Below, piece after piece: positions 30,762-46,236 of a stretch of 64,000 nt of DNA. A program made the position numbers and the translations under genes. The DNA lies in NCBI GenBank assembly GCA_040767085.1, contig JAXGPF010000005.1, forward strand, positions 8,343 through 72,342, given 5' to 3'. How positions within the stretch are numbered: the stretch's first letter is position 1; each line of letters opens with the position of its first letter. The notes under the pieces are model-generated. The model ran no database searches, was not told the DNA's origin, and worked only from the letters and a program-made list of their open reading frames with translations. The stretch is from Kiritimatiellia bacterium. GTDB taxonomy: Bacteria; Verrucomicrobiota; Kiritimatiellia; JAAZAB01.

Positions 30762-32189
30762 TCACCGCAGTTTGAACAATGCGCCCCGCGGAATAGTTTC
30801 ATAGGCGCCCATATCCACAATACCGGAAAATCGGTCCCGGCGCACAAATCCCGCAAGATCCACGGCGCCGGTCATCCAATCCATGTTGGTACCGGCGTTG
30901 ACGCCCGGCGACTGCGCATCCAGCCGGAAAGATTCATCGCTGAATAACGGCGGACTGGTTATATTGCCTTCGCCAGAACCCATCTCAGACGCGGGATATG
31001 AACAGGAATACACCACACCGCCGGTCAGTGCGGCTCCGCTCAAGTTAAGATTAGACTGCAACCCCGCCGCATTATTGTAAATGACGCAATTGACGGCGTG
31101 GACGCCGCTGACCTCCGCCGTGGTCACGCCGATATACAATCCCCCCCCGCTGGTGGTTGCCGCGTTTGACACAATCGTGCAATTGGCCAGTGAATTGCCG
31201 TTGTCGCGGTTTTGCGCCGCACAGTAGATTCCGCCGCCATAGGGCGCCGAGTTATAAGCGAACACATTATTGCGCAACACGATGCGGCAGGCATCGCCGC
31301 GAATGTATAATCCGCCGCCGTAGTAATAACCGGCGCGGGTCACCAGATTGCTTATGATCCGGCAATTTTCAATCACTGCCTCCCCGGACGCGGCGGCGCC
31401 ATAATAACAGTACATCCCCCCTCCCTGATTGGTTGCCGCGTTACAGGCGATAGTAGAATTAGCCACCACCCCCTCCATTTTCAAATGGATGCCGCCGCCA
31501 TACAAGCCGGCATTAGCAAAGATCACGCAATTGGAGATGAAACCGTTTTGCTCCACAAACACGCCGCCGCCATAATTGGGACACCGATTGGAAATGATGG
31601 AGCATTCGATTAACGCGCCGCTTTCCCGGATCAGCACTCCGCCGCCGCCATAGGAAGTATCCCGTTCGGACAAATTATTAAAAATGCTGCACCTTTCCAC
31701 CCGGGCCAACGGCCCGTTCAGGCAGACGCCCCCGCCATGCAGCCCGACATTTTCTTTTACCCGGCAATCGCGAAGCATTCCGGCAGAAATATAAACGCCG
31801 CCGCCATAAACTGCAGAATTGGCCGAGCCATTGCTGATGGTAAAACCGGTGACTACGGCATTGGAATGGCTGATGTTCAGACAGCGCACCGAAGCCTTGC
31901 CGTCTATCGATGTCTGCTCGGTGCCAGCGGCGCCGACCAGCCTAACGCCTTTGCTGACCGCCAATTCAGCTTCCAGAAAATATACGCCGTTGGATACCAG
32001 AATCATATCATCTGTCAGGGACTGATCCAGGGCATTGCTGATCGTACGCAAGGCCGTCGGCCAGTTCGTGCCGTCCGCCCCATCCTGTCCCAAAGTCGAA
32101 ACATACCATGTAGTTGCACCGCGGCCGGGCAGCGGCATCCCCAACCCTATAATCCATGCTAATGTCAGACAGCGCTGTAGTGCTTGCAT
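30762..32189 (-). CDS. secreted right-handed parallel beta-helix repeat protein
   Basis: ORF track; signal peptide; repeated YGGG motifs; C-terminal DMGAYE. Confidence 0.6.
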   Translation of the reverse strand: MQALQRCLTLAWIIGLGMPLPGRGATTWYVSTLGQDGADGTNWPTALRTISNALDQSLTDDMILVSNGVYFLEAELAVSKGVRLVGAAGTEQTSIDGKASVRCLNISHSNAVVTGFTISNGSANSAVYGGGVYISAGMLRDCRVKENVGLHGGGVCLNGPLARVERCSIFNNLSERDTSYGGGGVLIRESGALIECSIISNRCPNYGGGVFVEQNGFISNCVIFANAGLYGGGIHLKMEGVVANSTIACNAATNQGGGMYCYYGAAASGEAVIENCRIISNLVTRAGYYYGGGLYIRGDACRIVLRNNVFAYNSAPYGGGIYCAAQNRDNGNSLANCTIVSNAATTSGGGLYIGVTTAEVSGVHAVNCVIYNNAAGLQSNLNLSGAALTGGVVYSCSYPASEMGSGEGNITSPPLFSDESFRLDAQSPGVNAGTNMDWMTGAVDLAGFVRRDRFSGIVDMGAYETIPRGALFKLR

Positions 32190-32434
32190 CTCTATCCTTT
32201 CTCGTTGGCTACAACCTAAACCGCCAATGGCATGCCAGAAACAGTTTGCTATTTAAGTTAATTTCAAAGTCCGCTGGTCTATAATGCCTCAAGCTGACAC
32301 TAACTGACTTTTATACAAGTTAATCGCCACCTGATTTAAGAATTATAACAAACGAAAACCAGGGACGGCAAATATTTCCCATGTTGTGAGCAAACAAATC
32401 GTCCAGTTTGAGACTCTTGCACGTGGCTCGCATT

Positions 32435-34090
32435 TCAATTAAACATTACAGCTTGGGAAAAAAGCATATCCACTATTGGAATCGGCGCAGGCTCGCGCTT
32501 GTCGGAATCGACCGTTCCGCTGTAACCGCCCCCGCGAAAATCGTGCAGGCGGCTGATCTCCAGCACGTTCATGGATGCCATGGTCTCCGCCGTGAGCGGT
32601 TGGCCCTGGCAATGTGTTGCGGGATAAGCAAAGGCTTCGATTCTCACATATTTTTCCAGGATGCGGCCGGCGGGATCGCGGGAGAGTGTGTAAGCCGCCT
32701 GCGGCTGGTTTTCAATGAGGGCCACACCTTGGTCGGTGATGAAACGCACCTGCACGCGCGGCCTTTTGGTCTGATCCGCACCCGCCACTGCGACGGTTAC
32801 CGCGGTGGGATTCCCGGTTTTATCCTTTTCCAGGGCGATACGGGCGAATCGGAAACTACTGTAATCGTATGGCGGGGTTTTACGTCCCTGGCCATCGGTC
32901 GCCAGCGCGCCCAGCAGACCGTAAAAAGTTCCATTGCGGTAAGCGCGCGCGGCGTTATGCTCCCTGGCCTCCCGGGAAAGCTCCCCGGACTCCGGCACCA
33001 GCAGTATGTTGCGGCCCCGGGCGTAAACAAAATGATCGCGCACAAAAAAACCAAAACATCTTTGCCCGGTTGACAGCACTTCATCCCAGTGGTTGTAAAA
33101 AGCCAAGGTGCCCTTGCGGCCGAAAGCCAGGTGCTGGTTCCAAACCTCTATGCCCAGGACGCGCGGATCGAATGCCAGCTTTTCGAGCGTGGCTTCCAGC
33201 GGGCCGCCCGTGTGGTTGAGGGTGATACCGCCCCCGTCCCTGAAGCGGAGACCTTCTATCGGATGGCCCTGGCCATCTTGCATTGTGCCGTCAAGCGCCG
33301 CCTTATACGCATCGCGCCATGGCCGATGCACGCCCTGCCGCAGGACAAAGCGCAAGTCGGTAATTTCCTCCGGATTAAAATCGAACCGGACTTGCATCCG
33401 GCCGGATTCCGCCCGGAGATAGATTCTTCGCGTATTGACGGGGATGCTCCTTTTTTGCAGGTCGCTGTCCGGAGTGAGTTCGTAAGTTGCCGGGTCAACC
33501 TCGCGCGCGCCGGCTACCGCCAAGGTCATAGCCGCATCGGCTTTCCCGCTGATAAACATGTCCAGGCGGTAAATGCTCAGCCATGGCTTTTTATCGTCAT
33601 AGGGGTTCAGATTTTCGAACGCGTATGCCACGGGGGAAGTCCGGTTATTGCGGTATGACGTTTTTGCGCTTTCGCCATGCCCGGTGGCGTAATAGCTGTC
33701 CAGCGTATTGAAATGGCCGGGACCGTGAGCGCTATGATGCTCGGCGTTGGGCGCCCAGAGGGCGTCCGGGTGCTGCGCCCGGAACTTCTCGGGCAAGGGT
33801 TGCGGTTTGGAAGGATAGTAGTTGGAAAAAGGGAAATGGCGAAATCCCATTTCCCAGAATAGTTCGGGATTGACATCATAATCCGGCACGCGCCCGCCAT
33901 GCTGATGGGAAAAGGAATGCAGATGTTCGACGCTGCTCCAGTCAACGTTTTCGTATGGGTTCATAATTCTGTTCGGGGCGGCGGATGCATGTTCCTGTCC
34001 CGCGGTTGGCCGGGTGAAGACAAGCCCGGAGTAAACAAACAGCGTCACCAATATGGCGCTATTTCTGCGAACCTGCCTTGGACGCATCAT
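32435..34090 (-). CDS. secreted hypothetical protein (possible glycan-active or metal-dependent hydrolase)
   Basis: ORF track 32435..34096 (GTG) trimmed to ATG 34090; signal peptide; His-rich HLHSFSHQHGG; no confident family. Confidence 0.45.
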   Translation of the reverse strand: MMRPRQVRRNSAILVTLFVYSGLVFTRPTAGQEHASAAPNRIMNPYENVDWSSVEHLHSFSHQHGGRVPDYDVNPELFWEMGFRHFPFSNYYPSKPQPLPEKFRAQHPDALWAPNAEHHSAHGPGHFNTLDSYYATGHGESAKTSYRNNRTSPVAYAFENLNPYDDKKPWLSIYRLDMFISGKADAAMTLAVAGAREVDPATYELTPDSDLQKRSIPVNTRRIYLRAESGRMQVRFDFNPEEITDLRFVLRQGVHRPWRDAYKAALDGTMQDGQGHPIEGLRFRDGGGITLNHTGGPLEATLEKLAFDPRVLGIEVWNQHLAFGRKGTLAFYNHWDEVLSTGQRCFGFFVRDHFVYARGRNILLVPESGELSREAREHNAARAYRNGTFYGLLGALATDGQGRKTPPYDYSSFRFARIALEKDKTGNPTAVTVAVAGADQTKRPRVQVRFITDQGVALIENQPQAAYTLSRDPAGRILEKYVRIEAFAYPATHCQGQPLTAETMASMNVLEISRLHDFRGGGYSGTVDSDKREPAPIPIVDMLFSQAVMFN

Positions 34091-34240
34091 AATCACTGTA
34101 ATCCATCTCCCATGGAAATATTATGCCGGCAATATACGAGTTGTTTACAAAAGCCTGGCGCAATATGGATTTTTAGTTTTACGTTGAAAATCCAATCGTG
34201 TCAAATTTAAGGCTCCTAACCAGAATTTGTGGGTAAAAAA

Positions 34241-35936
34241 CAGGTTTTAAAGTTTAAGAAGTTCTCCAAGCAATGGCGCCAAAAGATGGTGGAGTTATTA
34301 ACAGCCTGCCGCTTTGGGCGTTTGGCGGCCCCGCAGCAGCCTGATTAATAACTCCTGATTGGCGCGATGGCGGAACGGAGATAAAGCGGCGGCAAAAAAA
34401 TAGGCTGGCCTTTCCGTAATCCATTGCGTATGCAATGGGTGAACACAAAAAAAGGAGGACCAGCCCAAGGTGAAACTTAAAACAATTTTGAATCGTTTGC
34501 AACCTTTGAAACGTTTTATTTATCAGGAAACTTGTATGGTTTTGGATCGTCGCGGCCAATGGAAAGTGGATATAAGCATTCGTCCGCATCGCCAACGCGC
34601 GGCATGCTGCTCGCGTTGCGGGCGACCGCTGGCGACATACGACACTCTGCCTGAACGGATATGGGCGTTTGTGCCCATTTTGAATGTGCCGGCTTTTTTG
34701 CATTATAGTCCGCGCCGGGTAAATTGCCCCGAACATGGCGTGGTGGTGGAAGCGCTGCCTTGGAGCGATGGCAAACGACCCTACAGCAAGGCGCTGATGC
34801 TTTTTTTGGGGAACTGGGCGCGGAGGTTGTCCTGGAAAGAGACGGCGCTGATTTTCAAAGTCAGTTGGCAGGCGGTTTATCGGTCGGTCGAGTGGATGGT
34901 GGAATGGGGCTTGGCGCACCGGGAATTGGCCAATATAACGGCGATTGGTGTTGATGAACTCCACGTAGGCAACGGTAAAAAGAGCAAGAACTATCTGACC
35001 TTGATCTATCAGATTGATGCGCAATGCCGCCGATTGCTCTGGGTCGGCCAAACCCGCCGGGCGGCCGCGCTGCGTAAAGGGTTGCAATCTTTGGGAAAAC
35101 CCGTGCTGGCCGGCATTCGACATATATGTAGCGATATGTGGCGACCTTATCTGAAAGTCATTGCTGCGAGCCTCAGCCACGGTTGCCACATGATTGACCG
35201 CTTCCATGTCGTGCAAACCTTGAATGCCGCCGTGGACGAGGTCCGGCGCCGGGATATGGCGGCGATGACAGCGCGTCCGGCGGCCAAGCAAAAACTCAAG
35301 AAAATGCGCTGGACCTTGCTGCGCCGCAAAACCCGCGTGCGCGGCAAAGCTCGCGAAATGCTTGATCGGATATTGGGCACAAGACTGCAAACCGGCCGCG
35401 CCTATTTGTTCAAGGAAAGCTTTCAGCATTTTTGGAGCTATCACAGCCCAACCTGGGCGCGTAATTATCTCCAGGCATGGGTCAAGCGCGCCTGTCGTAG
35501 CCGCATTGCGCCAATCATTAAGGCGGCTAAAACCATTGCTAAACACGAGGAGCTGCTTTTGAACTGGATCAGAGCCAGAAACGAGGTTTTTACTGGCGCA
35601 ACCGAGGGCTTGAACAATAAAGCTCGAGTGGTTACCAAACGATCTTATGGCTTCAGAACTTTTCATGGCGCGGAAATGGCGCTATATCATACCCTTGGGC
35701 AATTGCCCGAACCGGTAATCACCCACAAATTCTGGTGAGGAAACAAATTTAATAACTCTACGAATTTTGCTGAATTTTCACGTTTTTACTGTATTTGGAC
35801 GGACGCGCCTGTTTACGGCCTTTACGCGCTATACGTTAATCTGCCTGGAGTGACAACAAGCGAAAACGGGATAAAACCAATGTTTGCCCAAATTTCAGCA
35901 AAACAAAGCATCCATTTTTAGACTTTTGAAACCAGA
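34241..35936 (+). mobile_element. ISL3-family insertion sequence (boundaries approximate)
   Basis: ISL3 transposase flanked by imperfect inverted repeats (about 34241..34263 vs 35913..35936, roughly 17 of 22 matched); GC visibly lower than surroundings. Confidence 0.5.
34470..35738 (+). CDS. ISL3 family transposase
   Basis: ORF track; GTG start after AGGAGG; N-terminal zinc-finger cysteines; C-terminal TGATEGLNNKARVVTKRSYGFR and terminal HKFW. Confidence 0.85.
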   Translation: MKLKTILNRLQPLKRFIYQETCMVLDRRGQWKVDISIRPHRQRAACCSRCGRPLATYDTLPERIWAFVPILNVPAFLHYSPRRVNCPEHGVVVEALPWSDGKRPYSKALMLFLGNWARRLSWKETALIFKVSWQAVYRSVEWMVEWGLAHRELANITAIGVDELHVGNGKKSKNYLTLIYQIDAQCRRLLWVGQTRRAAALRKGLQSLGKPVLAGIRHICSDMWRPYLKVIAASLSHGCHMIDRFHVVQTLNAAVDEVRRRDMAAMTARPAAKQKLKKMRWTLLRRKTRVRGKAREMLDRILGTRLQTGRAYLFKESFQHFWSYHSPTWARNYLQAWVKRACRSRIAPIIKAAKTIAKHEELLLNWIRARNEVFTGATEGLNNKARVVTKRSYGFRTFHGAEMALYHTLGQLPEPVITHKFW

Positions 35937-35943
35937 TTAATGA

Positions 35944-37197
35944 TTATCTTGTTATTAATCTGATCGCAATATTTTCACAACCGGCCGGCGGCGCATAATT
36001 TTCCAACCGGCTGATCGTTCGCCCGTTCGATTCCGCTATGATGTCATAATGGAAAAAGGTCGTCACGGGCACGCCATCCGCATCCGCCGCGATTATGCTG
36101 TGGGTTAAAATAATAGCGCGGGCATCGCCGGCGCCCGGCGTGCATCCATCCGTTCCGGTGATGGCGTAATTATTGGCGACCAGGTCTTCCCCCGTCTCGC
36201 GGGGTACGGCGCGCACGCGCGCCCGTGCGACAGGGTCACCGGCATCATTTTCCACACGGACTGCCACTTGCCGACGGAAAACGGCCCGGCTGCTTTGGCC
36301 AGGTTGCGCCGCGTAAACATCCGGCTGTGCGCCGGGAGCAACCTGGCAATCCGTCAATTCAATCCGGCCGCCGCTGGTCAATTGCCAATTGCGCGCATTG
36401 CGTTCGAATCGGCAGCCATGCAAAAGGATGGTATTGCCCTGGATACCGGCAATAACCGTGGTGTTTTCCCGGAAACAGCAGCCTTCCGCCGCTTGATCCG
36501 GCGCGCTGAAAACAGATGCATTATTTTCGAAAATCGAATCGCGGATTGACGCGCGCTGCCGGGCGGCGCCAAATAAAGCGGCAGCGTTGAATCCGGCAAC
36601 CAACGCGCGGTCCAGGGTGACCAGCCCTGACCAATAAGGGCGGGCTATTTCCCGCCGCCCGCTCGCCGATGCAAGCACACCATGATAAATATGCAACTCG
36701 CCGCCATAGCCGTTTTGCCACCCCCCACGTCCATCGGGCAACTTGCCGGAAACAATCGTGTGGTCTTTCCCGCCGATCTTAAGCGCCGCCCGGATGGCGG
36801 AGTTTGTGCGGTTGCCCAAGGTCAAGCGGTTGACGCACGCGGGAGCGTATCGGTCGTTCACGCCGACCACCAGATAAGGCGCAAGAATCAAAGTTCCGTT
36901 CAGGATCAAAGTTTCGTTGGCCAACAGTGGACATCCGATTTGCATCCACGTTTCAGAACCGTCATTCCGGCCAACCTGCAGGTTGGCGTCAACGGTATAT
37001 GTTTGCGCGCCGGCATCCTTCCGTACCAGGTTCCAACCATTGGCGCGGTCAGCGCGCAACAGTGACTCCAGTCGCGCCGGCGCTGACTCGGCAAAGTCAG
37101 CCACAATCATCGTGCGCGTACCGGACTCAAAAACGACTGTCGCCGGCAAGGGGAGGCTGATCAACAGGCATGCCAGACAGGCAATAATTTTACCCAT
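35944..37197 (-). CDS. secreted beta-helix-like hypothetical protein
   Basis: ORF track 35944..37236 trimmed to ATG 37197 (AGGTGG SD upstream; signal peptide MGKIIACLACLLISLPLP); stop lies within about 10 bp of ISL3 right end. Confidence 0.5.
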   Translation of the reverse strand: MGKIIACLACLLISLPLPATVVFESGTRTMIVADFAESAPARLESLLRADRANGWNLVRKDAGAQTYTVDANLQVGRNDGSETWMQIGCPLLANETLILNGTLILAPYLVVGVNDRYAPACVNRLTLGNRTNSAIRAALKIGGKDHTIVSGKLPDGRGGWQNGYGGELHIYHGVLASASGRREIARPYWSGLVTLDRALVAGFNAAALFGAARQRASIRDSIFENNASVFSAPDQAAEGCCFRENTTVIAGIQGNTILLHGCRFERNARNWQLTSGGRIELTDCQVAPGAQPDVYAAQPGQSSRAVFRRQVAVRVENDAGDPVARARVRAVPRETGEDLVANNYAITGTDGCTPGAGDARAIILTHSIIAADADGVPVTTFFHYDIIAESNGRTISRLENYAPPAGCENIAIRLITR

Positions 37198-37223
37198 ATT
37201 ACCACCTGAATCCGTTATGAGGT

Positions 37224-37357
37224 CGGGATGCCGCATCCCGCTGGAAGTGCGACAAGAATACGCGGCGCGAAGGATGAAGCTGGATCAACATATCCCGCGA
37301 TAGCGGGACAAGCTGCAAGTTTATCCCGCGAGCGGGATTTATCCCGCACAGCGGGAT
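37224..37357. repeat. array of four short GC-rich hairpin palindromes sharing half-site ATCCCGC/GCGGGAT
   Basis: CGGGATG-CCG-CATCCCG (37224..37240); ATCCCGC-GATA-GCGGGA (37292..37308); ATCCCGC-GA-GCGGGAT (37323..37338); ATCCCGC-ACA-GCGGGAT (37341..37357); extra half-site at 37497..37503. Confidence 0.5.
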
Positions 37358-37530
37358 TCTTCGCAATAGAGCAGATGCGGCATAATGGCCTCACCCGCAG
37401 GGCGGTCTTTCCCGTCAAACCGAGCCGTGCTTTTTTGGTGATATTGTAAAACGCCATAAATTGTTGTTTATTCAGGCATTATCTTAACAATATAAAATCC
37501 CGCCACGGATTCAGGTTGCATTGCCGCGGG

Positions 37531-40500
37531 TTATGGCTCGAATTCCGTCGCCGCAGCGCCGCGTTCTATCTGCAACCCATCCACCCAGACAGTGCTGCTG
37601 GCATCGGACACAAAATGCACTCCCAGCATGCTGGCGCCCGACCCGGCTTCGAAAGCCACACTGCAGCGTTGCCATTGGCGTTGCAGTTGGAAAGAAGTGT
37701 CGCCTTTTCCGCCGGCGCGCAGCTTGGCGGTCACGCCCTCTCGATCCGCGCGCAGCCAGGCGGAAAATACATATTTTTCCGGCGTCATATGGCTGGTATG
37801 CAAATTGATATAAATAAACCGCCAGCTACCGCCATCCGCAATCATTTCCAGACATTTAGCGCCATGGTACGGAGCATTGGTGGTCAACCCCCACACTTGA
37901 TTGGAACCGCCAATGCGTTCCCAGGGCTTCAGCGGCGTTCCTGTCTGGCGCCAGTAATCGGGACGGCCGGGAATGGATTCCTCTTCCAAACTCGGATTCG
38001 GCGCCAGGTTTTTCATATCAACCCGCCCCGCCCGCCCGTAAGTCGGCGTCCGCGGCGGCGGCATGCCCCGCGGCTGCATGGCGACCCCGATGGCAAGCGC
38101 CCCGTCTAGCACGGAATCATGGCCGGCTTTTTGTATATGATAGGCGCGCACTCCCAGCGGTTCCAGTTGATCATCAAAGGCGCCGGCGGTAACGGGATAA
38201 GCAGCCGCCAGGAAAAGTTCTTGAATGGCTTCGGCGCGCTCAAACAGGGGGGAATCGTATCGCACCGCAACCGGGTAATCGGCGACATTGGCGGCCAGCA
38301 AGATAAAGCCCCCGTCCGGGTCGCGCTTCAGCGCAACATGTACATCCGGCATGCGCCGGGCGTCAAAATCATACGGCCCGCCGGAATAATTCACGGTTTG
38401 GGGCAGATCCGGTTCCAGGCATGCGGGACTTAACCGCCGCAGGCGCCGTGCCAATTCGCGCAGCGTATCCCAGTTAGCCTGAGCGCGCTCCGGGTAGCAG
38501 AAATATCCGATGCCTTTGACGCCGTGGATCAAAGCCAGGTAGGTTTGGCACACCTGCTCGGCGGGCAGCAAGGCGCGCTTGACGATCCCGCTGTATTCGG
38601 CGCCCTGCATGACGACCAGGGGCACCACGCGCATCCGCCGCGCTTTCAGCCGCAAGTGATGCGCCATCCAAGCGACATAATCAATAGTGCCGTTGACGCC
38701 TGCATGTTCCGGCGTCCAGTATGGATCAATCCCCAACATATCCGCCCAATCAAACCAGTCATCCGAACATTGGTACACGCCCGGATTACAATTGAGAAAA
38801 ACCGGATGGTAGCCGTCCAGTTTTTTTATCCGGCGATAGAATTCCCGGCCGACGGGAATCTGGCCGTAATTGATATTCAACAACGGCTCGTCGAAAATGA
38901 AACAAGCGGCCAGCGCCGGATGCCGCATTCCCGCCTGCAATACCGCCGCAAGATAAGGCATCTGATTGTCAAGATACTCCAGCAATACTGCGGTTTTAAC
39001 TTGCGCAGCGCGTCCGGGAATGGCGGAGAGAATGACATCTTTGCTGCGGATGCCCAACGAGCAGGTGGCATGTTGCAAGGCGCGGTTGACCGCATGCAGT
39101 TCCTCCGGATTCAGTAGTTGATCCCGGTTTTTGACCTTGGTGCGGGCGTTGAACGGCGTATAATTCATATCCACAGCCGCAATGACTTTCAGACCATGCC
39201 GCGCCGCGGCATCCAGGTATGCCTGCATATCTTTAACTTGATCGCCCTCAGGATCGCTGCGGTCGCCCGCCGGCTGATATGACCATTGGTACATGGTGTT
39301 AAAACCGGCGTCCGCTATTTCGGCGAAAGCATAATCATCCGCCGGCGTAATGCCGGCCATGATCATCCCGCACGGAAAAAACGGCTTGCCGTTGTCAAGC
39401 AGCCGTTGATTGGCCCGATCCACTTTCCACTCGCAACCCGGGCGCGGAGCGCGCTTAATCAGCGGCAGTGCCAGCACCGACCCGGCGCCGCCATCCGCCA
39501 GCACGAGTTCCAAGTGCAATTGGTGTTCCCCCGCCGGCACCCGATCGAGCGGCACGGCAAAATCCAACCGGGGGGGTGGCGCGTCCAGACTAGCCAGCAC
39601 CTGCGCTCCCAGCCGCGCCTGGAGATGGAGATCGCGCAAGGTTTCCGCCGGCATTCCGATACGGCAAGCGGCATACGCCGCCGATTCCGTCGTGTAATAA
39701 TCGCGGTCTAACTCTGCCGCGAACAGGTTCAGTACGCCAGCATCTGCGATAGCCAGCTTTTGCCAGGTCTCGCGTGTCGTACCGTCCACCAAACACACCG
39801 TGACGGCGCGTTCCGTCATGGCCGCGACCGGAACCGGCACACGCGCCGACAGCATGACAGCGCTGCCATCCGCGAAAACAACCTTTTCAGCCAGAGTGCT
39901 TTCGCCATGGCGGGGTTCGTCCTTCACGGCAATGAGCACGGTCCCGGTGGCAGAACTGAACAACTGCAAGTCGGCCTGAATGTCATAAAAAGCCGTCCCA
40001 TTGGTGACATAATACTGACTGACTTCCGCCGATTTAATATAGGGCAGCAAAGGCGCAACCAGGCTATTTATTTCCAAATCGAGCAGGCGCCCGAAACGCG
40101 CCGCCTCCGTCCAGGCGTTGGCGGGTGAACTGCCTGAAAGCGCCGCCCAACTGAGGCATTCGCGCTCTGCACCAATTTTCACCCGGCAAGCGTCGCGGTA
40201 AACGCGGAAACAATCAATGATAAAATTCATCCGAGCTTGCTCGGGGTGACCTACCTCGGTCAGAAGCGCAAGCGGCAGCGCAATTTCAACTTGCCAGCCC
40301 CGGGGATCGGTTGTCACCGCCGATTTCCATGGAATATTCCATTCCTCGCGTTCGCGGCCCTTATCCGTAGTCACCCGGAAATCGGCCCGGGTGTTGGCTT
40401 TATTGACTAGAAACTGATAAAACATTTGGCCGCCCGTGCCGGGATCGAAGGAAACCTGCACATTATCTTCGCGTTGCACAGGCTGGTCGTGTGATAAATA

Positions 40501-40791
40501 AAGCGGCGGATCGCGCTGATCTTCCGGTTGGTCAACCGTGAAAGCCGCGTAAAGCCAGCGGCTGTCACGCAAAACGCGCACATAATGCCTGCGGACGGCG
40601 CCGGAGTCTCCTCCAACCTGACGAAATTCATCCACCAGCGCGGCTGCCGACCAGCAAGCATCCGTTATAATCCCGTCAATGAGCGGCGCTTCCATGGCGC
40701 ATGGAACCCGGATTTCGGGGATACCGCCGGCGCCGGCGCGCATGGCCAGAGCAAACAGACCGATTTTCACATATTGGCTCAAATCACGCAT
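37531..40791 (-). CDS. large secreted multidomain protein, CBM9-like N-terminal domain, putative glycoside hydrolase
   Basis: ORF track; 1086 aa; signal peptide; N-terminal APLIDGIITDACW pattern; domain calls tentative. Confidence 0.5.
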   Translation of the reverse strand: MRDLSQYVKIGLFALAMRAGAGGIPEIRVPCAMEAPLIDGIITDACWSAAALVDEFRQVGGDSGAVRRHYVRVLRDSRWLYAAFTVDQPEDQRDPPLYLSHDQPVQREDNVQVSFDPGTGGQMFYQFLVNKANTRADFRVTTDKGREREEWNIPWKSAVTTDPRGWQVEIALPLALLTEVGHPEQARMNFIIDCFRVYRDACRVKIGAERECLSWAALSGSSPANAWTEAARFGRLLDLEINSLVAPLLPYIKSAEVSQYYVTNGTAFYDIQADLQLFSSATGTVLIAVKDEPRHGESTLAEKVVFADGSAVMLSARVPVPVAAMTERAVTVCLVDGTTRETWQKLAIADAGVLNLFAAELDRDYYTTESAAYAACRIGMPAETLRDLHLQARLGAQVLASLDAPPPRLDFAVPLDRVPAGEHQLHLELVLADGGAGSVLALPLIKRAPRPGCEWKVDRANQRLLDNGKPFFPCGMIMAGITPADDYAFAEIADAGFNTMYQWSYQPAGDRSDPEGDQVKDMQAYLDAAARHGLKVIAAVDMNYTPFNARTKVKNRDQLLNPEELHAVNRALQHATCSLGIRSKDVILSAIPGRAAQVKTAVLLEYLDNQMPYLAAVLQAGMRHPALAACFIFDEPLLNINYGQIPVGREFYRRIKKLDGYHPVFLNCNPGVYQCSDDWFDWADMLGIDPYWTPEHAGVNGTIDYVAWMAHHLRLKARRMRVVPLVVMQGAEYSGIVKRALLPAEQVCQTYLALIHGVKGIGYFCYPERAQANWDTLRELARRLRRLSPACLEPDLPQTVNYSGGPYDFDARRMPDVHVALKRDPDGGFILLAANVADYPVAVRYDSPLFERAEAIQELFLAAAYPVTAGAFDDQLEPLGVRAYHIQKAGHDSVLDGALAIGVAMQPRGMPPPRTPTYGRAGRVDMKNLAPNPSLEEESIPGRPDYWRQTGTPLKPWERIGGSNQVWGLTTNAPYHGAKCLEMIADGGSWRFIYINLHTSHMTPEKYVFSAWLRADREGVTAKLRAGGKGDTSFQLQRQWQRCSVAFEAGSGASMLGVHFVSDASSTVWVDGLQIERGAAATEFEP

Positions 40792-46161: not shown

Positions 46162-46236
46162 TGGCACGCCCAAGGAGAGTCGAACTCCTCTTCCCAGGAT
46201 GAAAACCTGGTGTCCTGACCGATAGACGATGGGCGC
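46162..46236 (-). tRNA. tRNA-Glu (anticodon UUC)
   Basis: Manual cloverleaf on minus strand: acceptor GCGCCCA/TGGGCGT, anticodon stem CCAGG/CCTGG, loop TTTTCAT, T-arm AGGAG-TTCGACT-CTCCT, 3' GCCA; 75 nt. Confidence 0.85.

Follow-up and report, generated by a model that had tools for sequence, protein, structure and literature searches.

Insertion sequences (ISs) of the ISL3 family, such as ISL3, IS1411, ISPpu12, ISPst2/CLJ-ISL3 and ISAeme19, encode a single DDE transposase that combines an ISL3 domain with a zinc ribbon, and they are bounded by imperfect terminal inverted repeats of roughly 15-40 bp starting with GG. The size range of the family includes elements of 1534 bp, AT-rich targets are preferred, and a copy-out-paste-in mechanism is suspected for some members. 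CLJ-ISL3 has 24-bp imperfect inverted repeats, and the 8-bp direct repeat that accompanies it has been termed classical for ISL3 (PMC7643977). ISAeme19 is likewise flanked by 8-bp direct repeats and lies in AT-rich flanks (PMC12554700). We observed that the window, as we call the whole 64-kb stretch of Kiritimatiellia DNA analysed here, carries a complete ISL3-family IS of 1534 bp at positions 34211..35744 on the + strand, which shares the single transposase with an ISL3 DDE domain, the 24-bp imperfect repeats beginning with GG, the 8-bp target duplication and the AT-rich target with the described members. We regard it as almost certain that this unit is a complete, apparently functional ISL3-family IS that was recently inserted into an AT-rich host spacer.

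The ends of the IS were fixed by two independent lines of evidence, namely metagenome copies with unrelated flanks and a contig that carries the empty site (L011). An identical transposase was found on 10 contigs, nine of which are metagenome contigs (L002-L010). Eight of these (L002-L009) hold complete 1534-bp copies that are 99.8-100% identical over the whole length but sit in unrelated flanks, and their similarity to the window begins at 34211 and ends at 35744, to within a few bases of chance agreement. The ninth contig (L010) is 98.4% identical, begins inside the IS and has the same right end as the window copy. Terminal inverted repeats of 24 bp each lie at exactly these ends, which were set by the other copies and the empty site; they agree at 21 of their 24 positions. 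The left repeat, GGCTCCTAACCAGAATTTGTGGGT, occupies 34211..34234 on the + strand, and the right repeat, at 35721..35744 on the − strand, holds the last five codons of the transposase gene (T-H-K-F-W) together with its TGA stop at 35736..35738. The inverted-repeat listing of the window gives 95% complementarity for the arms 34214-34234 and 35721-35741, and the window contains the 16-nt repeat core at exactly two places, where chance would give 0.01. Immediately outside the repeats, a perfect 8-bp duplication of AAATTTAA, 100% A+T, is present at 34203..34210 on the left and at 35745..35752 on the right, as read from the sequence and from the direct-repeat listing. The C that precedes the right AAATTTAA belongs to the IS, whose conserved final base it forms in every copy.

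The empty-site contig comes from another sequencing run and contains the locus without the IS and with a single AAATTTAA. It matches window positions 35974..35744 and 34210..32166 at 100% identity, 2267 bp in all, and these matches share 9 bases, made up of one AAATTTAA copy and one chance C; the empty junction lies at L011 positions 223-231. The occupied and empty alleles thus differ solely by the IS and one 8-bp repeat. Since the uninterrupted allele is 100% identical and eight copies elsewhere are 99.8-100% identical, a recent insertion is strongly supported by these sequence comparisons, in agreement with the recent acquisition suggested in the original prediction. The presence of an IS-free locus in one sequencing run indicates that the insertion is still polymorphic, and from this population polymorphism, together with the identity of the copies, we infer that the IS is currently active. 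In the proposed sequence of events, the transposase would bind both 24-bp terminal inverted repeats, and the IS landed in an AT-rich, 305-bp spacer between two minus-strand host genes, where a staggered cut at the target followed by repair duplicated the 8-bp AAATTTAA. The right repeat doubles as the final codons and stop of the transposase gene.

These ends differ from those proposed originally, which ran from 34241 to about 35936, with imperfect boundaries, a right inverted repeat at 35913..35936, no clean 8-bp duplication, and an end some 10 bp short of the stop in a beta-helix gene whose 3′ end or terminator might have been altered. Some features of the local sequence favour that arrangement: an AT-rich imperfect inverted repeat surrounds the stop codon (35915-35941 and 35954-35980, 70% complementary), and there is weak complementarity between 34236-34249 and 35872-35885. 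However, 35745..35974 is host DNA, because L011 joins it directly to 34210, and the proposed right repeat falls inside this stretch and is present in the empty site. Furthermore, all eight complete copies and the partial one end at 35744, the perfect duplication flanks 34211..35744, and the C-terminus of the neighbouring protein matches its homologues, so that there is virtually no chance that the wider boundaries are correct. An assembly artefact, in which a multi-copy IS was mis-threaded into the locus by the assembler, was also considered. The flanks of IS-bearing metagenome contigs do not match each other, which indicates that assemblers mis-join around this IS, and the IS-free locus was assembled from another run. 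Yet a mis-join would not yield a perfect 8-bp duplication of a sequence that is single in the empty site, and both junctions sit at the exact IS ends, which makes an artefact extremely improbable. It is also very unlikely that the occupied allele is ancestral and that L011 arose by precise excision instead of a new insertion having occurred in the window's genome. The alleles differ by nothing other than the IS and one repeat, and two alleles by themselves give no direction of change, but for DDE elements precise excision with restoration of a single target copy is rare in comparison with new insertion, and the full-length identity of 99.8-100% to eight copies at other sites points to ongoing spread.

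Next, we searched for target duplications around other copies of the IS. Seven metagenome contigs carry the identical IS with both flanks, and matching 8-bp sequences were absent from all of them (0/7). Most simply, these unmatched flanks would result from recombination between copies or from short-read assemblies that became chimeric at a multi-copy repeat. The copies in relatives also gave no matching duplication, the best being 7 of 8 positions in L080. L002-L009 and the relatives are short-read contigs, and they cannot confirm the 8-bp duplication as general for this IS. The 20 bp adjoining the ends of the other copies have a mean A+T content of 71%. A metagenome scan with the 16-nt repeat core, which is too short as a metagenome query, yielded chiefly chance matches and distant members of the ISL3 family; it added no close copy whose flanks were reliable.

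The sole gene of the IS (34470..35738, + strand) encodes a 422-aa transposase that has an ISL3 DDE domain and a putative zinc ribbon. The gene is intact, and the ISL3 assignment and HKFW C-terminus (here ...THKFW) given in the original prediction are borne out. The protein matches Pfam PF01610 (DDE_Tnp_ISL3) with an E-value of 1.1e-60 and 234 of 240 profile positions covered, and the NCBIfam equivalog for ISL3 transposases, NF033550, with 248.9 bits (cut-off 180). The match to PF14690, the zinc ribbon of the IS204/IS1001/IS1096/IS1165 type, scores 25.4 bits, just below the gathering score of 25.5. The N-terminal CxxC...CxxH pattern is present, and in an alignment of 10 relatives C47, C50 and C86 are invariant, as are D162 (GVDE), D222 (CSDMW), E379 (EGLNxK) and K384. 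D162, D222 and E379 would form the catalytic acidic triad D, D, E. The reading frame is uninterrupted, and the putative zinc-ribbon cysteines and the D, D, E residues are kept as in relatives at 43-68% identity. A GTG start is supported because K4, L7, N8 and F16, which are conserved in the N-termini of relatives, are all encoded ahead of the alternative ATG at 34536. This GTG is preceded by a Shine-Dalgarno-like AGGAGG at 34453..34458 (+ strand), read from the sequence 11 nt ahead of it. Exact-product look-ups for the 400-aa product with the ATG start (P0014) and for a fragment (P0021) returned no record. Between the left repeat and the gene lies a non-coding leader of 49% GC (34235..34469, + strand) with an 11-nt perfect inverted repeat in the inverted-repeat listing and a long hairpin at 34291..34355, which may have a regulatory role. 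Folded as RNA, 34211..34490 scores z = -2.72 relative to shuffled sequences, and a sigma-70 consensus scan of the leader found no promoter for the transposase.

The lower GC content that had been noted for the element was also recovered, at 52.7% for the IS compared to 62.0% for the rest of the window, and among 1534-bp windows taken from outside the IS, just 0.08% have a GC content as low. The transposase gene itself has 53.4% GC and a GC3 of 59.8%, against 56-59% GC and a GC3 of 63-66% in the neighbouring genes. Part of the low GC attributed to the element originally is due to host spacer (35-38%) and to the IS leader.

To the right, the IS lies downstream of a minus-strand host gene at 35944..37197, with 199 bp between the right end of the IS and the stop codon (35944..35946) of that gene. 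This gene, which had been called correctly, encodes a 417-aa secreted protein with an exact product on record. An AlphaFold2 model of the protein (pLDDT 82) gave weak matches to beta-helix enzymes, and the protein probably folds into a parallel beta-helix followed by a beta-sandwich at the C-terminus. In the comparison with L011, neither the final 31 bases of the gene nor the 199-bp spacer beyond its stop differs between the occupied and the empty allele. The C-terminus aligns with nine homologues, ending within a few residues of theirs, and the 3′ end is thus intact, contrary to the proposed modification. The intergenic DNA from 35753 to 35943 has a GC content of 37.7%, lies outside the IS and is part of the sequence joined to 34210 in L011 at 100% identity. 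The RNA fold of the host spacer and gene end at 35745..35990 was no better than that of shuffled sequence (z 0.17), an Rfam search gave no matches near the locus, and a scan of the host spacer found no terminator-like sites. To the left, a second minus-strand gene (32435..34096) has its GTG start codon, at 34096, 114 bp from the IS, which therefore lies within the upstream region of this gene. Its 553-aa product, of unassigned function, had no match in Pfam, NCBIfam or PDB sequences. The orientation of the IS is opposite to that of both flanking genes, and both coding sequences are untouched.

Of the two neighbours, the 553-aa gene is the more likely to be affected by the IS, and any effect would be exerted through transcription. 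The insertion might uncouple this gene from read-through out of the 417-aa gene, or might change the upstream context of its own promoter, but we consider a regulatory consequence of either kind unlikely. The position of the IS, 114 bp ahead of the GTG and within the spacer of two co-oriented genes that has no terminator-like site, is consistent with such a consequence, as is a perfect TTGACA (34205..34200, minus strand) that overlaps the duplicated target and directly adjoins the left repeat. A promoter-like site at 34147..34120 (minus strand) stays attached to the 553-aa gene. However, the scan gave 3 promoter matches where 2.5 were expected in shuffled sequence, and the promoter rules of the host may differ from the consensus scanned; the left repeat contained no promoter-like site facing outward. 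A further extension of this idea, in which the IS would be a segregating regulatory polymorphism that splits a two-gene secreted-protein unit, shifts the expression of the 553-aa gene and has both alleles kept by selection in the bioreactor or wastewater population, appears distinctly improbable.

The significance of the insertion is small beyond annotation. The neighbouring beta-helix gene is unaltered by the IS. With corrected ends, repeats and duplication, the IS can be named and properly masked in Kiritimatiellia-like genomes and metagenome-assembled genomes. The IS breaks such assemblies: most of the contigs that bear it are 1.7-2.7 kb long, and one related copy lies where a contig ends. 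Occupied and empty alleles together also document a single transposition event cleanly, as it occurred in nature. Taken at the level of sequence, the comparison shows an IS that would be mobile now, or was very recently, in anaerobic digester and wastewater communities.

To place the IS among its relatives, we compared it with copies from metagenomes and metagenome-assembled genomes that share the same repeat core, in Deltaproteobacteria (L012), Acidobacteria (L013 and L014), Verrucomicrobiia (L015) and Omnitrophica (L016), and with L058, L096 and L080. Like the window IS, these elements conform to a common repeat consensus, GGCTCCTCACCAGAATTTGTGGGT, measure 1.4-1.6 kb, have AT-rich flanks and encode the C-terminus LPEPxxTH(K/R)F(W/C) inside the right repeat. 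They differ in their transposases, with 43-68% protein identity, and in their leaders, which are not alignable. The only close copy in relatives is the fragment at the end of a contig in a Kiritimatiellia metagenome-assembled genome (L018), which has 96% DNA identity and a flank GC of 62%, similar to that of the window. ISPpu12 and CLJ-ISL3 carry passenger or regulator genes, whereas the window IS has none. A search of 72,556 plasmids gave no ISL3 transposase with 50% or more identity to that of the window IS, and the nearest full-length relative in GTDB species genomes has at most 68% protein identity; an isoform of a named IS is defined by at least 95% amino acid or at least 90% nucleotide identity to an ISfinder entry. 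In conclusion, judged against these plasmid and GTDB relatives, the window IS is probably an unnamed member of the well-known ISL3 family.

We found that the ISL3-family insertion sequence (IS) is genuine and complete, spans window positions 34211..35744 and was inserted recently. This bears out the recent acquisition suggested in the original prediction but moves both ends, which had been placed at 34241 and about 35936. The left terminal inverted repeat (34211..34234, + strand) was read from the sequence as GGCTCCTAACCAGAATTTGTGGGT, and the right repeat (35721..35744, - strand) is its imperfect reverse complement. The two match at 21 of 24 positions, and the repeat finder scored the arms (inverted repeat I2) as 95% complementary over 21 nt. 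The whole 64-kb window contains just two occurrences of their 16-nt core, one per strand, where chance predicts 0.01. Directly outside both repeats we observed a perfect 8-bp target duplication, AAATTTAA (34203..34210 and 35745..35752; direct repeat D3), where no clean duplication had been recognized. Since the right repeat's final C is kept in all copies of the IS while the following base varies, the duplication is 8 bp and not 9.

The decisive result for the ends came from an empty site. Look-up of the 553-aa protein encoded beside the IS retrieved a contig from run SRR13306813 (L011) that is 100% identical to the window in two blocks: its bases 1-231 correspond to 35974..35744 and its bases 223-2267 to 34210..32166. 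The two blocks overlap by a single target copy. In window orientation this contig reads ...CCAATCGTGTCAAATTTAATAACTCTACG..., that is, both window flanks joined with one AAATTTAA.

Next to the repeats and the empty site, other copies place the ends at the same positions. An exact look-up found 10 contigs with the identical transposase in unrelated metagenomes, among them an anaerobic digester and wastewater, and nine of these contigs (L002-L010) were compared with the window. In all eight of L002-L009, a unit of exactly 1534 bp lies between the same two repeats, in unrelated flanks; similarity to the window (99.8-100% identity) runs from 34211 to 35744, to within a few bases of chance agreement. 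The ninth contig, L010, is 98.4% identical, starts within the element and has the same right end. A matching 8-bp duplication was not found in any of the seven metagenome contigs showing both IS flanks (L002-L004, L006-L009). Chimeras formed when short reads of a multi-copy repeat were assembled, or recombination among the copies, probably account for this. The window duplication is unaffected by these mismatched contigs, because the empty site proves it.

These ends change the relation of the IS to the 417-aa gene (35944..37197, - strand). The distance from the element to the TAA of this gene (35944..35946) is 199 bp, instead of the roughly 10 bp originally proposed. The interval 35745..35974 is host DNA, including the previously proposed right inverted repeat at 35913..35936, a stretch that is present in the empty site. 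What had been taken for that repeat is probably I3, an AT-rich host palindrome that surrounds the stop codon and occurs in the empty site as well; its perfect 9-bp core pairs CAGATTAAT at 35933..35941 with ATTAATCTG at 35954..35962. Its 12-nt loop holds the stop codon, and no T run follows the palindrome at 35933..35962. The host spacer as a whole folds no better than chance (z 0.17). It also carries a 14-nt inverted repeat pair (35765..35778 and 35890..35903), 93% complementary and 111 nt apart, found within the window only at this site. The occupied and empty sites do not differ in the last 31 bases of the 417-aa gene or anywhere in the spacer downstream of it, and the C-terminus of the protein lies no more than a few residues from those of nine homologues. 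The suggested modification of the gene's 3' end is thus not borne out; an element ending elsewhere, beside a 3' end intact relative to homologues, is the outcome that the original prediction had itself named as refuting.

The one long + strand ORF of the IS is the transposase gene (34470..35738), which encodes 422 aa from a GTG start and ends in ...PVITHKFW. It matches Pfam DDE_Tnp_ISL3 (E 1.1e-60, 234 of 240 profile positions covered) and the NCBIfam ISL3 transposase equivalog model (248.9 bits; cut-off 180); against the Pfam ISL3 zinc ribbon it scores 25.4 bits, just short of the 25.5-bit cut-off. The ISL3 transposase with an HKFW C-terminus was correctly recognized. Zinc-ribbon residues C47, C50 and C86 are conserved in nine aligned relatives (43-68% identity), as are D162 (GVDE), D222 (CSDMW), and E379 and K384 (EGLNxK); the transposase therefore looks intact. 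Because N-terminal K4, L7, N8 and F16 are conserved among relatives, the GTG at 34470 is a better-supported start than an ATG at 34536. A 470-aa antisense ORF (34254..35666, - strand) was without support and was dismissed as a shadow ORF of the GC-rich coding region.

A ribosome-binding site, AGGAGG (34453..34458, + strand), precedes the start within a 280-nt leader (34211..34490, + strand) that is predicted to fold more stably than shuffled versions (z -2.72) and is identical in all copies. The leader contains a long hairpin with an 11-nt perfect stem (34291..34355), and its lowest-energy predicted fold pairs the ribosome-binding site with 34261..34267. Such a fold could exert translational control of the transposase, damping translation from read-through transcripts.

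The lower GC content attributed to the element holds: 52.7% versus 62.0% for the rest of the window, a value this low being reached by just 0.08% of segments of equal length taken outside the IS. The contrast is smaller against the immediate neighbours, as the transposase gene has 53.4% GC and 59.8% GC3, and four neighbouring genes have 56-59% and 63-66%, respectively. The deepest troughs of the GC profile are the host spacer (35-38%) and the IS leader (49%).

The IS lies in the upstream region of the 553-aa gene (32435..34096, - strand), which follows the 417-aa gene, and is oriented opposite to both. The spacer, 305 bp long in its absence, is divided by it into parts of 199 bp and 114 bp; a scan of this spacer gave no terminator-like site, and promoter-like matches were no more numerous than in shuffled sequence. 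One such match (34147..34120, - strand) remains on the side of the 553-aa gene, as does a perfect TTGACA that overlaps the target (34205..34200); an influence on transcription of this gene is possible but unsupported. The 553-aa protein has an apparent signal peptide and no match in Pfam, NCBIfam or PDB sequences. The 417-aa protein likewise has no match in Pfam or NCBIfam and belongs to a tiny family (10 homologues among 5.8 billion proteins). It has a hydrophobic N-terminal helix, and its AlphaFold2 model (pLDDT 82) consists of short repeated strands. The best structural matches, parallel beta-helix enzymes, are weak (AlgG, E 2.7e-3, then tailspikes and a PL6 lyase), and the earlier description as a secreted beta-helix is plausible but only weakly supported. 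The C-terminal part of the model matches a transthyretin-like sandwich, and the model suggests a beta-helix with a transthyretin-like C-terminal domain. Both genes belong to a run of four large minus-strand ORFs (30762..40791), of 475, 553, 417 and 1086 aa. A hydrophobic signal-like N-terminus is present in three or more of them, and GGG(V/I)Y-type repeats abound in the 475-aa ORF. Across the window, Rfam and ARAGORN matched only a tRNA-Glu (anticodon TTC; 46162..46236, - strand).

By the mechanism standard for the ISL3 family, the transposase would bind both terminal repeats and the target would be cut with an 8-bp stagger, repair then duplicating the 8 target bp. Transposition through a circular intermediate has been reported for some members. 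The last five transposase codons and the TGA stop (35736..35738) sit inside the right repeat. Among relatives, conservation of the C-terminal motif LPEPxxTH(K/R)F(W/C) goes hand in hand with that of the repeat core, since one stretch of DNA specifies both. The core, ACCAGAATTTGTGGGT, encodes the conserved T-H-K-F-W and stop codon and is nearly unchanged in seven relatives (L012, L015, L022, L043, L058, L080 and L096) despite protein identities of just 43-68%, which places the right repeat and the gene end under a shared constraint.

The nearest full-length relative in GTDB species genomes is 68% identical, and the nearest annotated plasmid relatives are less than 50% identical. A 96%-identical IS fragment lies at a contig end in a metagenome-assembled genome of Kiritimatiellia, obtained from an anaerobic membrane bioreactor; its flank has 62% GC, like the window, a hint of the group to which the host belongs. 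From these comparisons the IS most likely belongs, as an unnamed member, to a very well-known family, and the finding, an ordinary ISL3 element, is of low interest. All testable defining features of ISL3 were found save the zinc-ribbon Pfam score, 0.1 bit short of its cut-off. The duplicated target is 100% A+T, and A+T averages 71% in the 20 bp adjoining other copies; AT-rich flanks have been reported for ISAeme19 (PMC12554700). Direct repeats of 8 bp are called classical for ISL3, and one member has 24-bp imperfect inverted repeats (PMC7643977).
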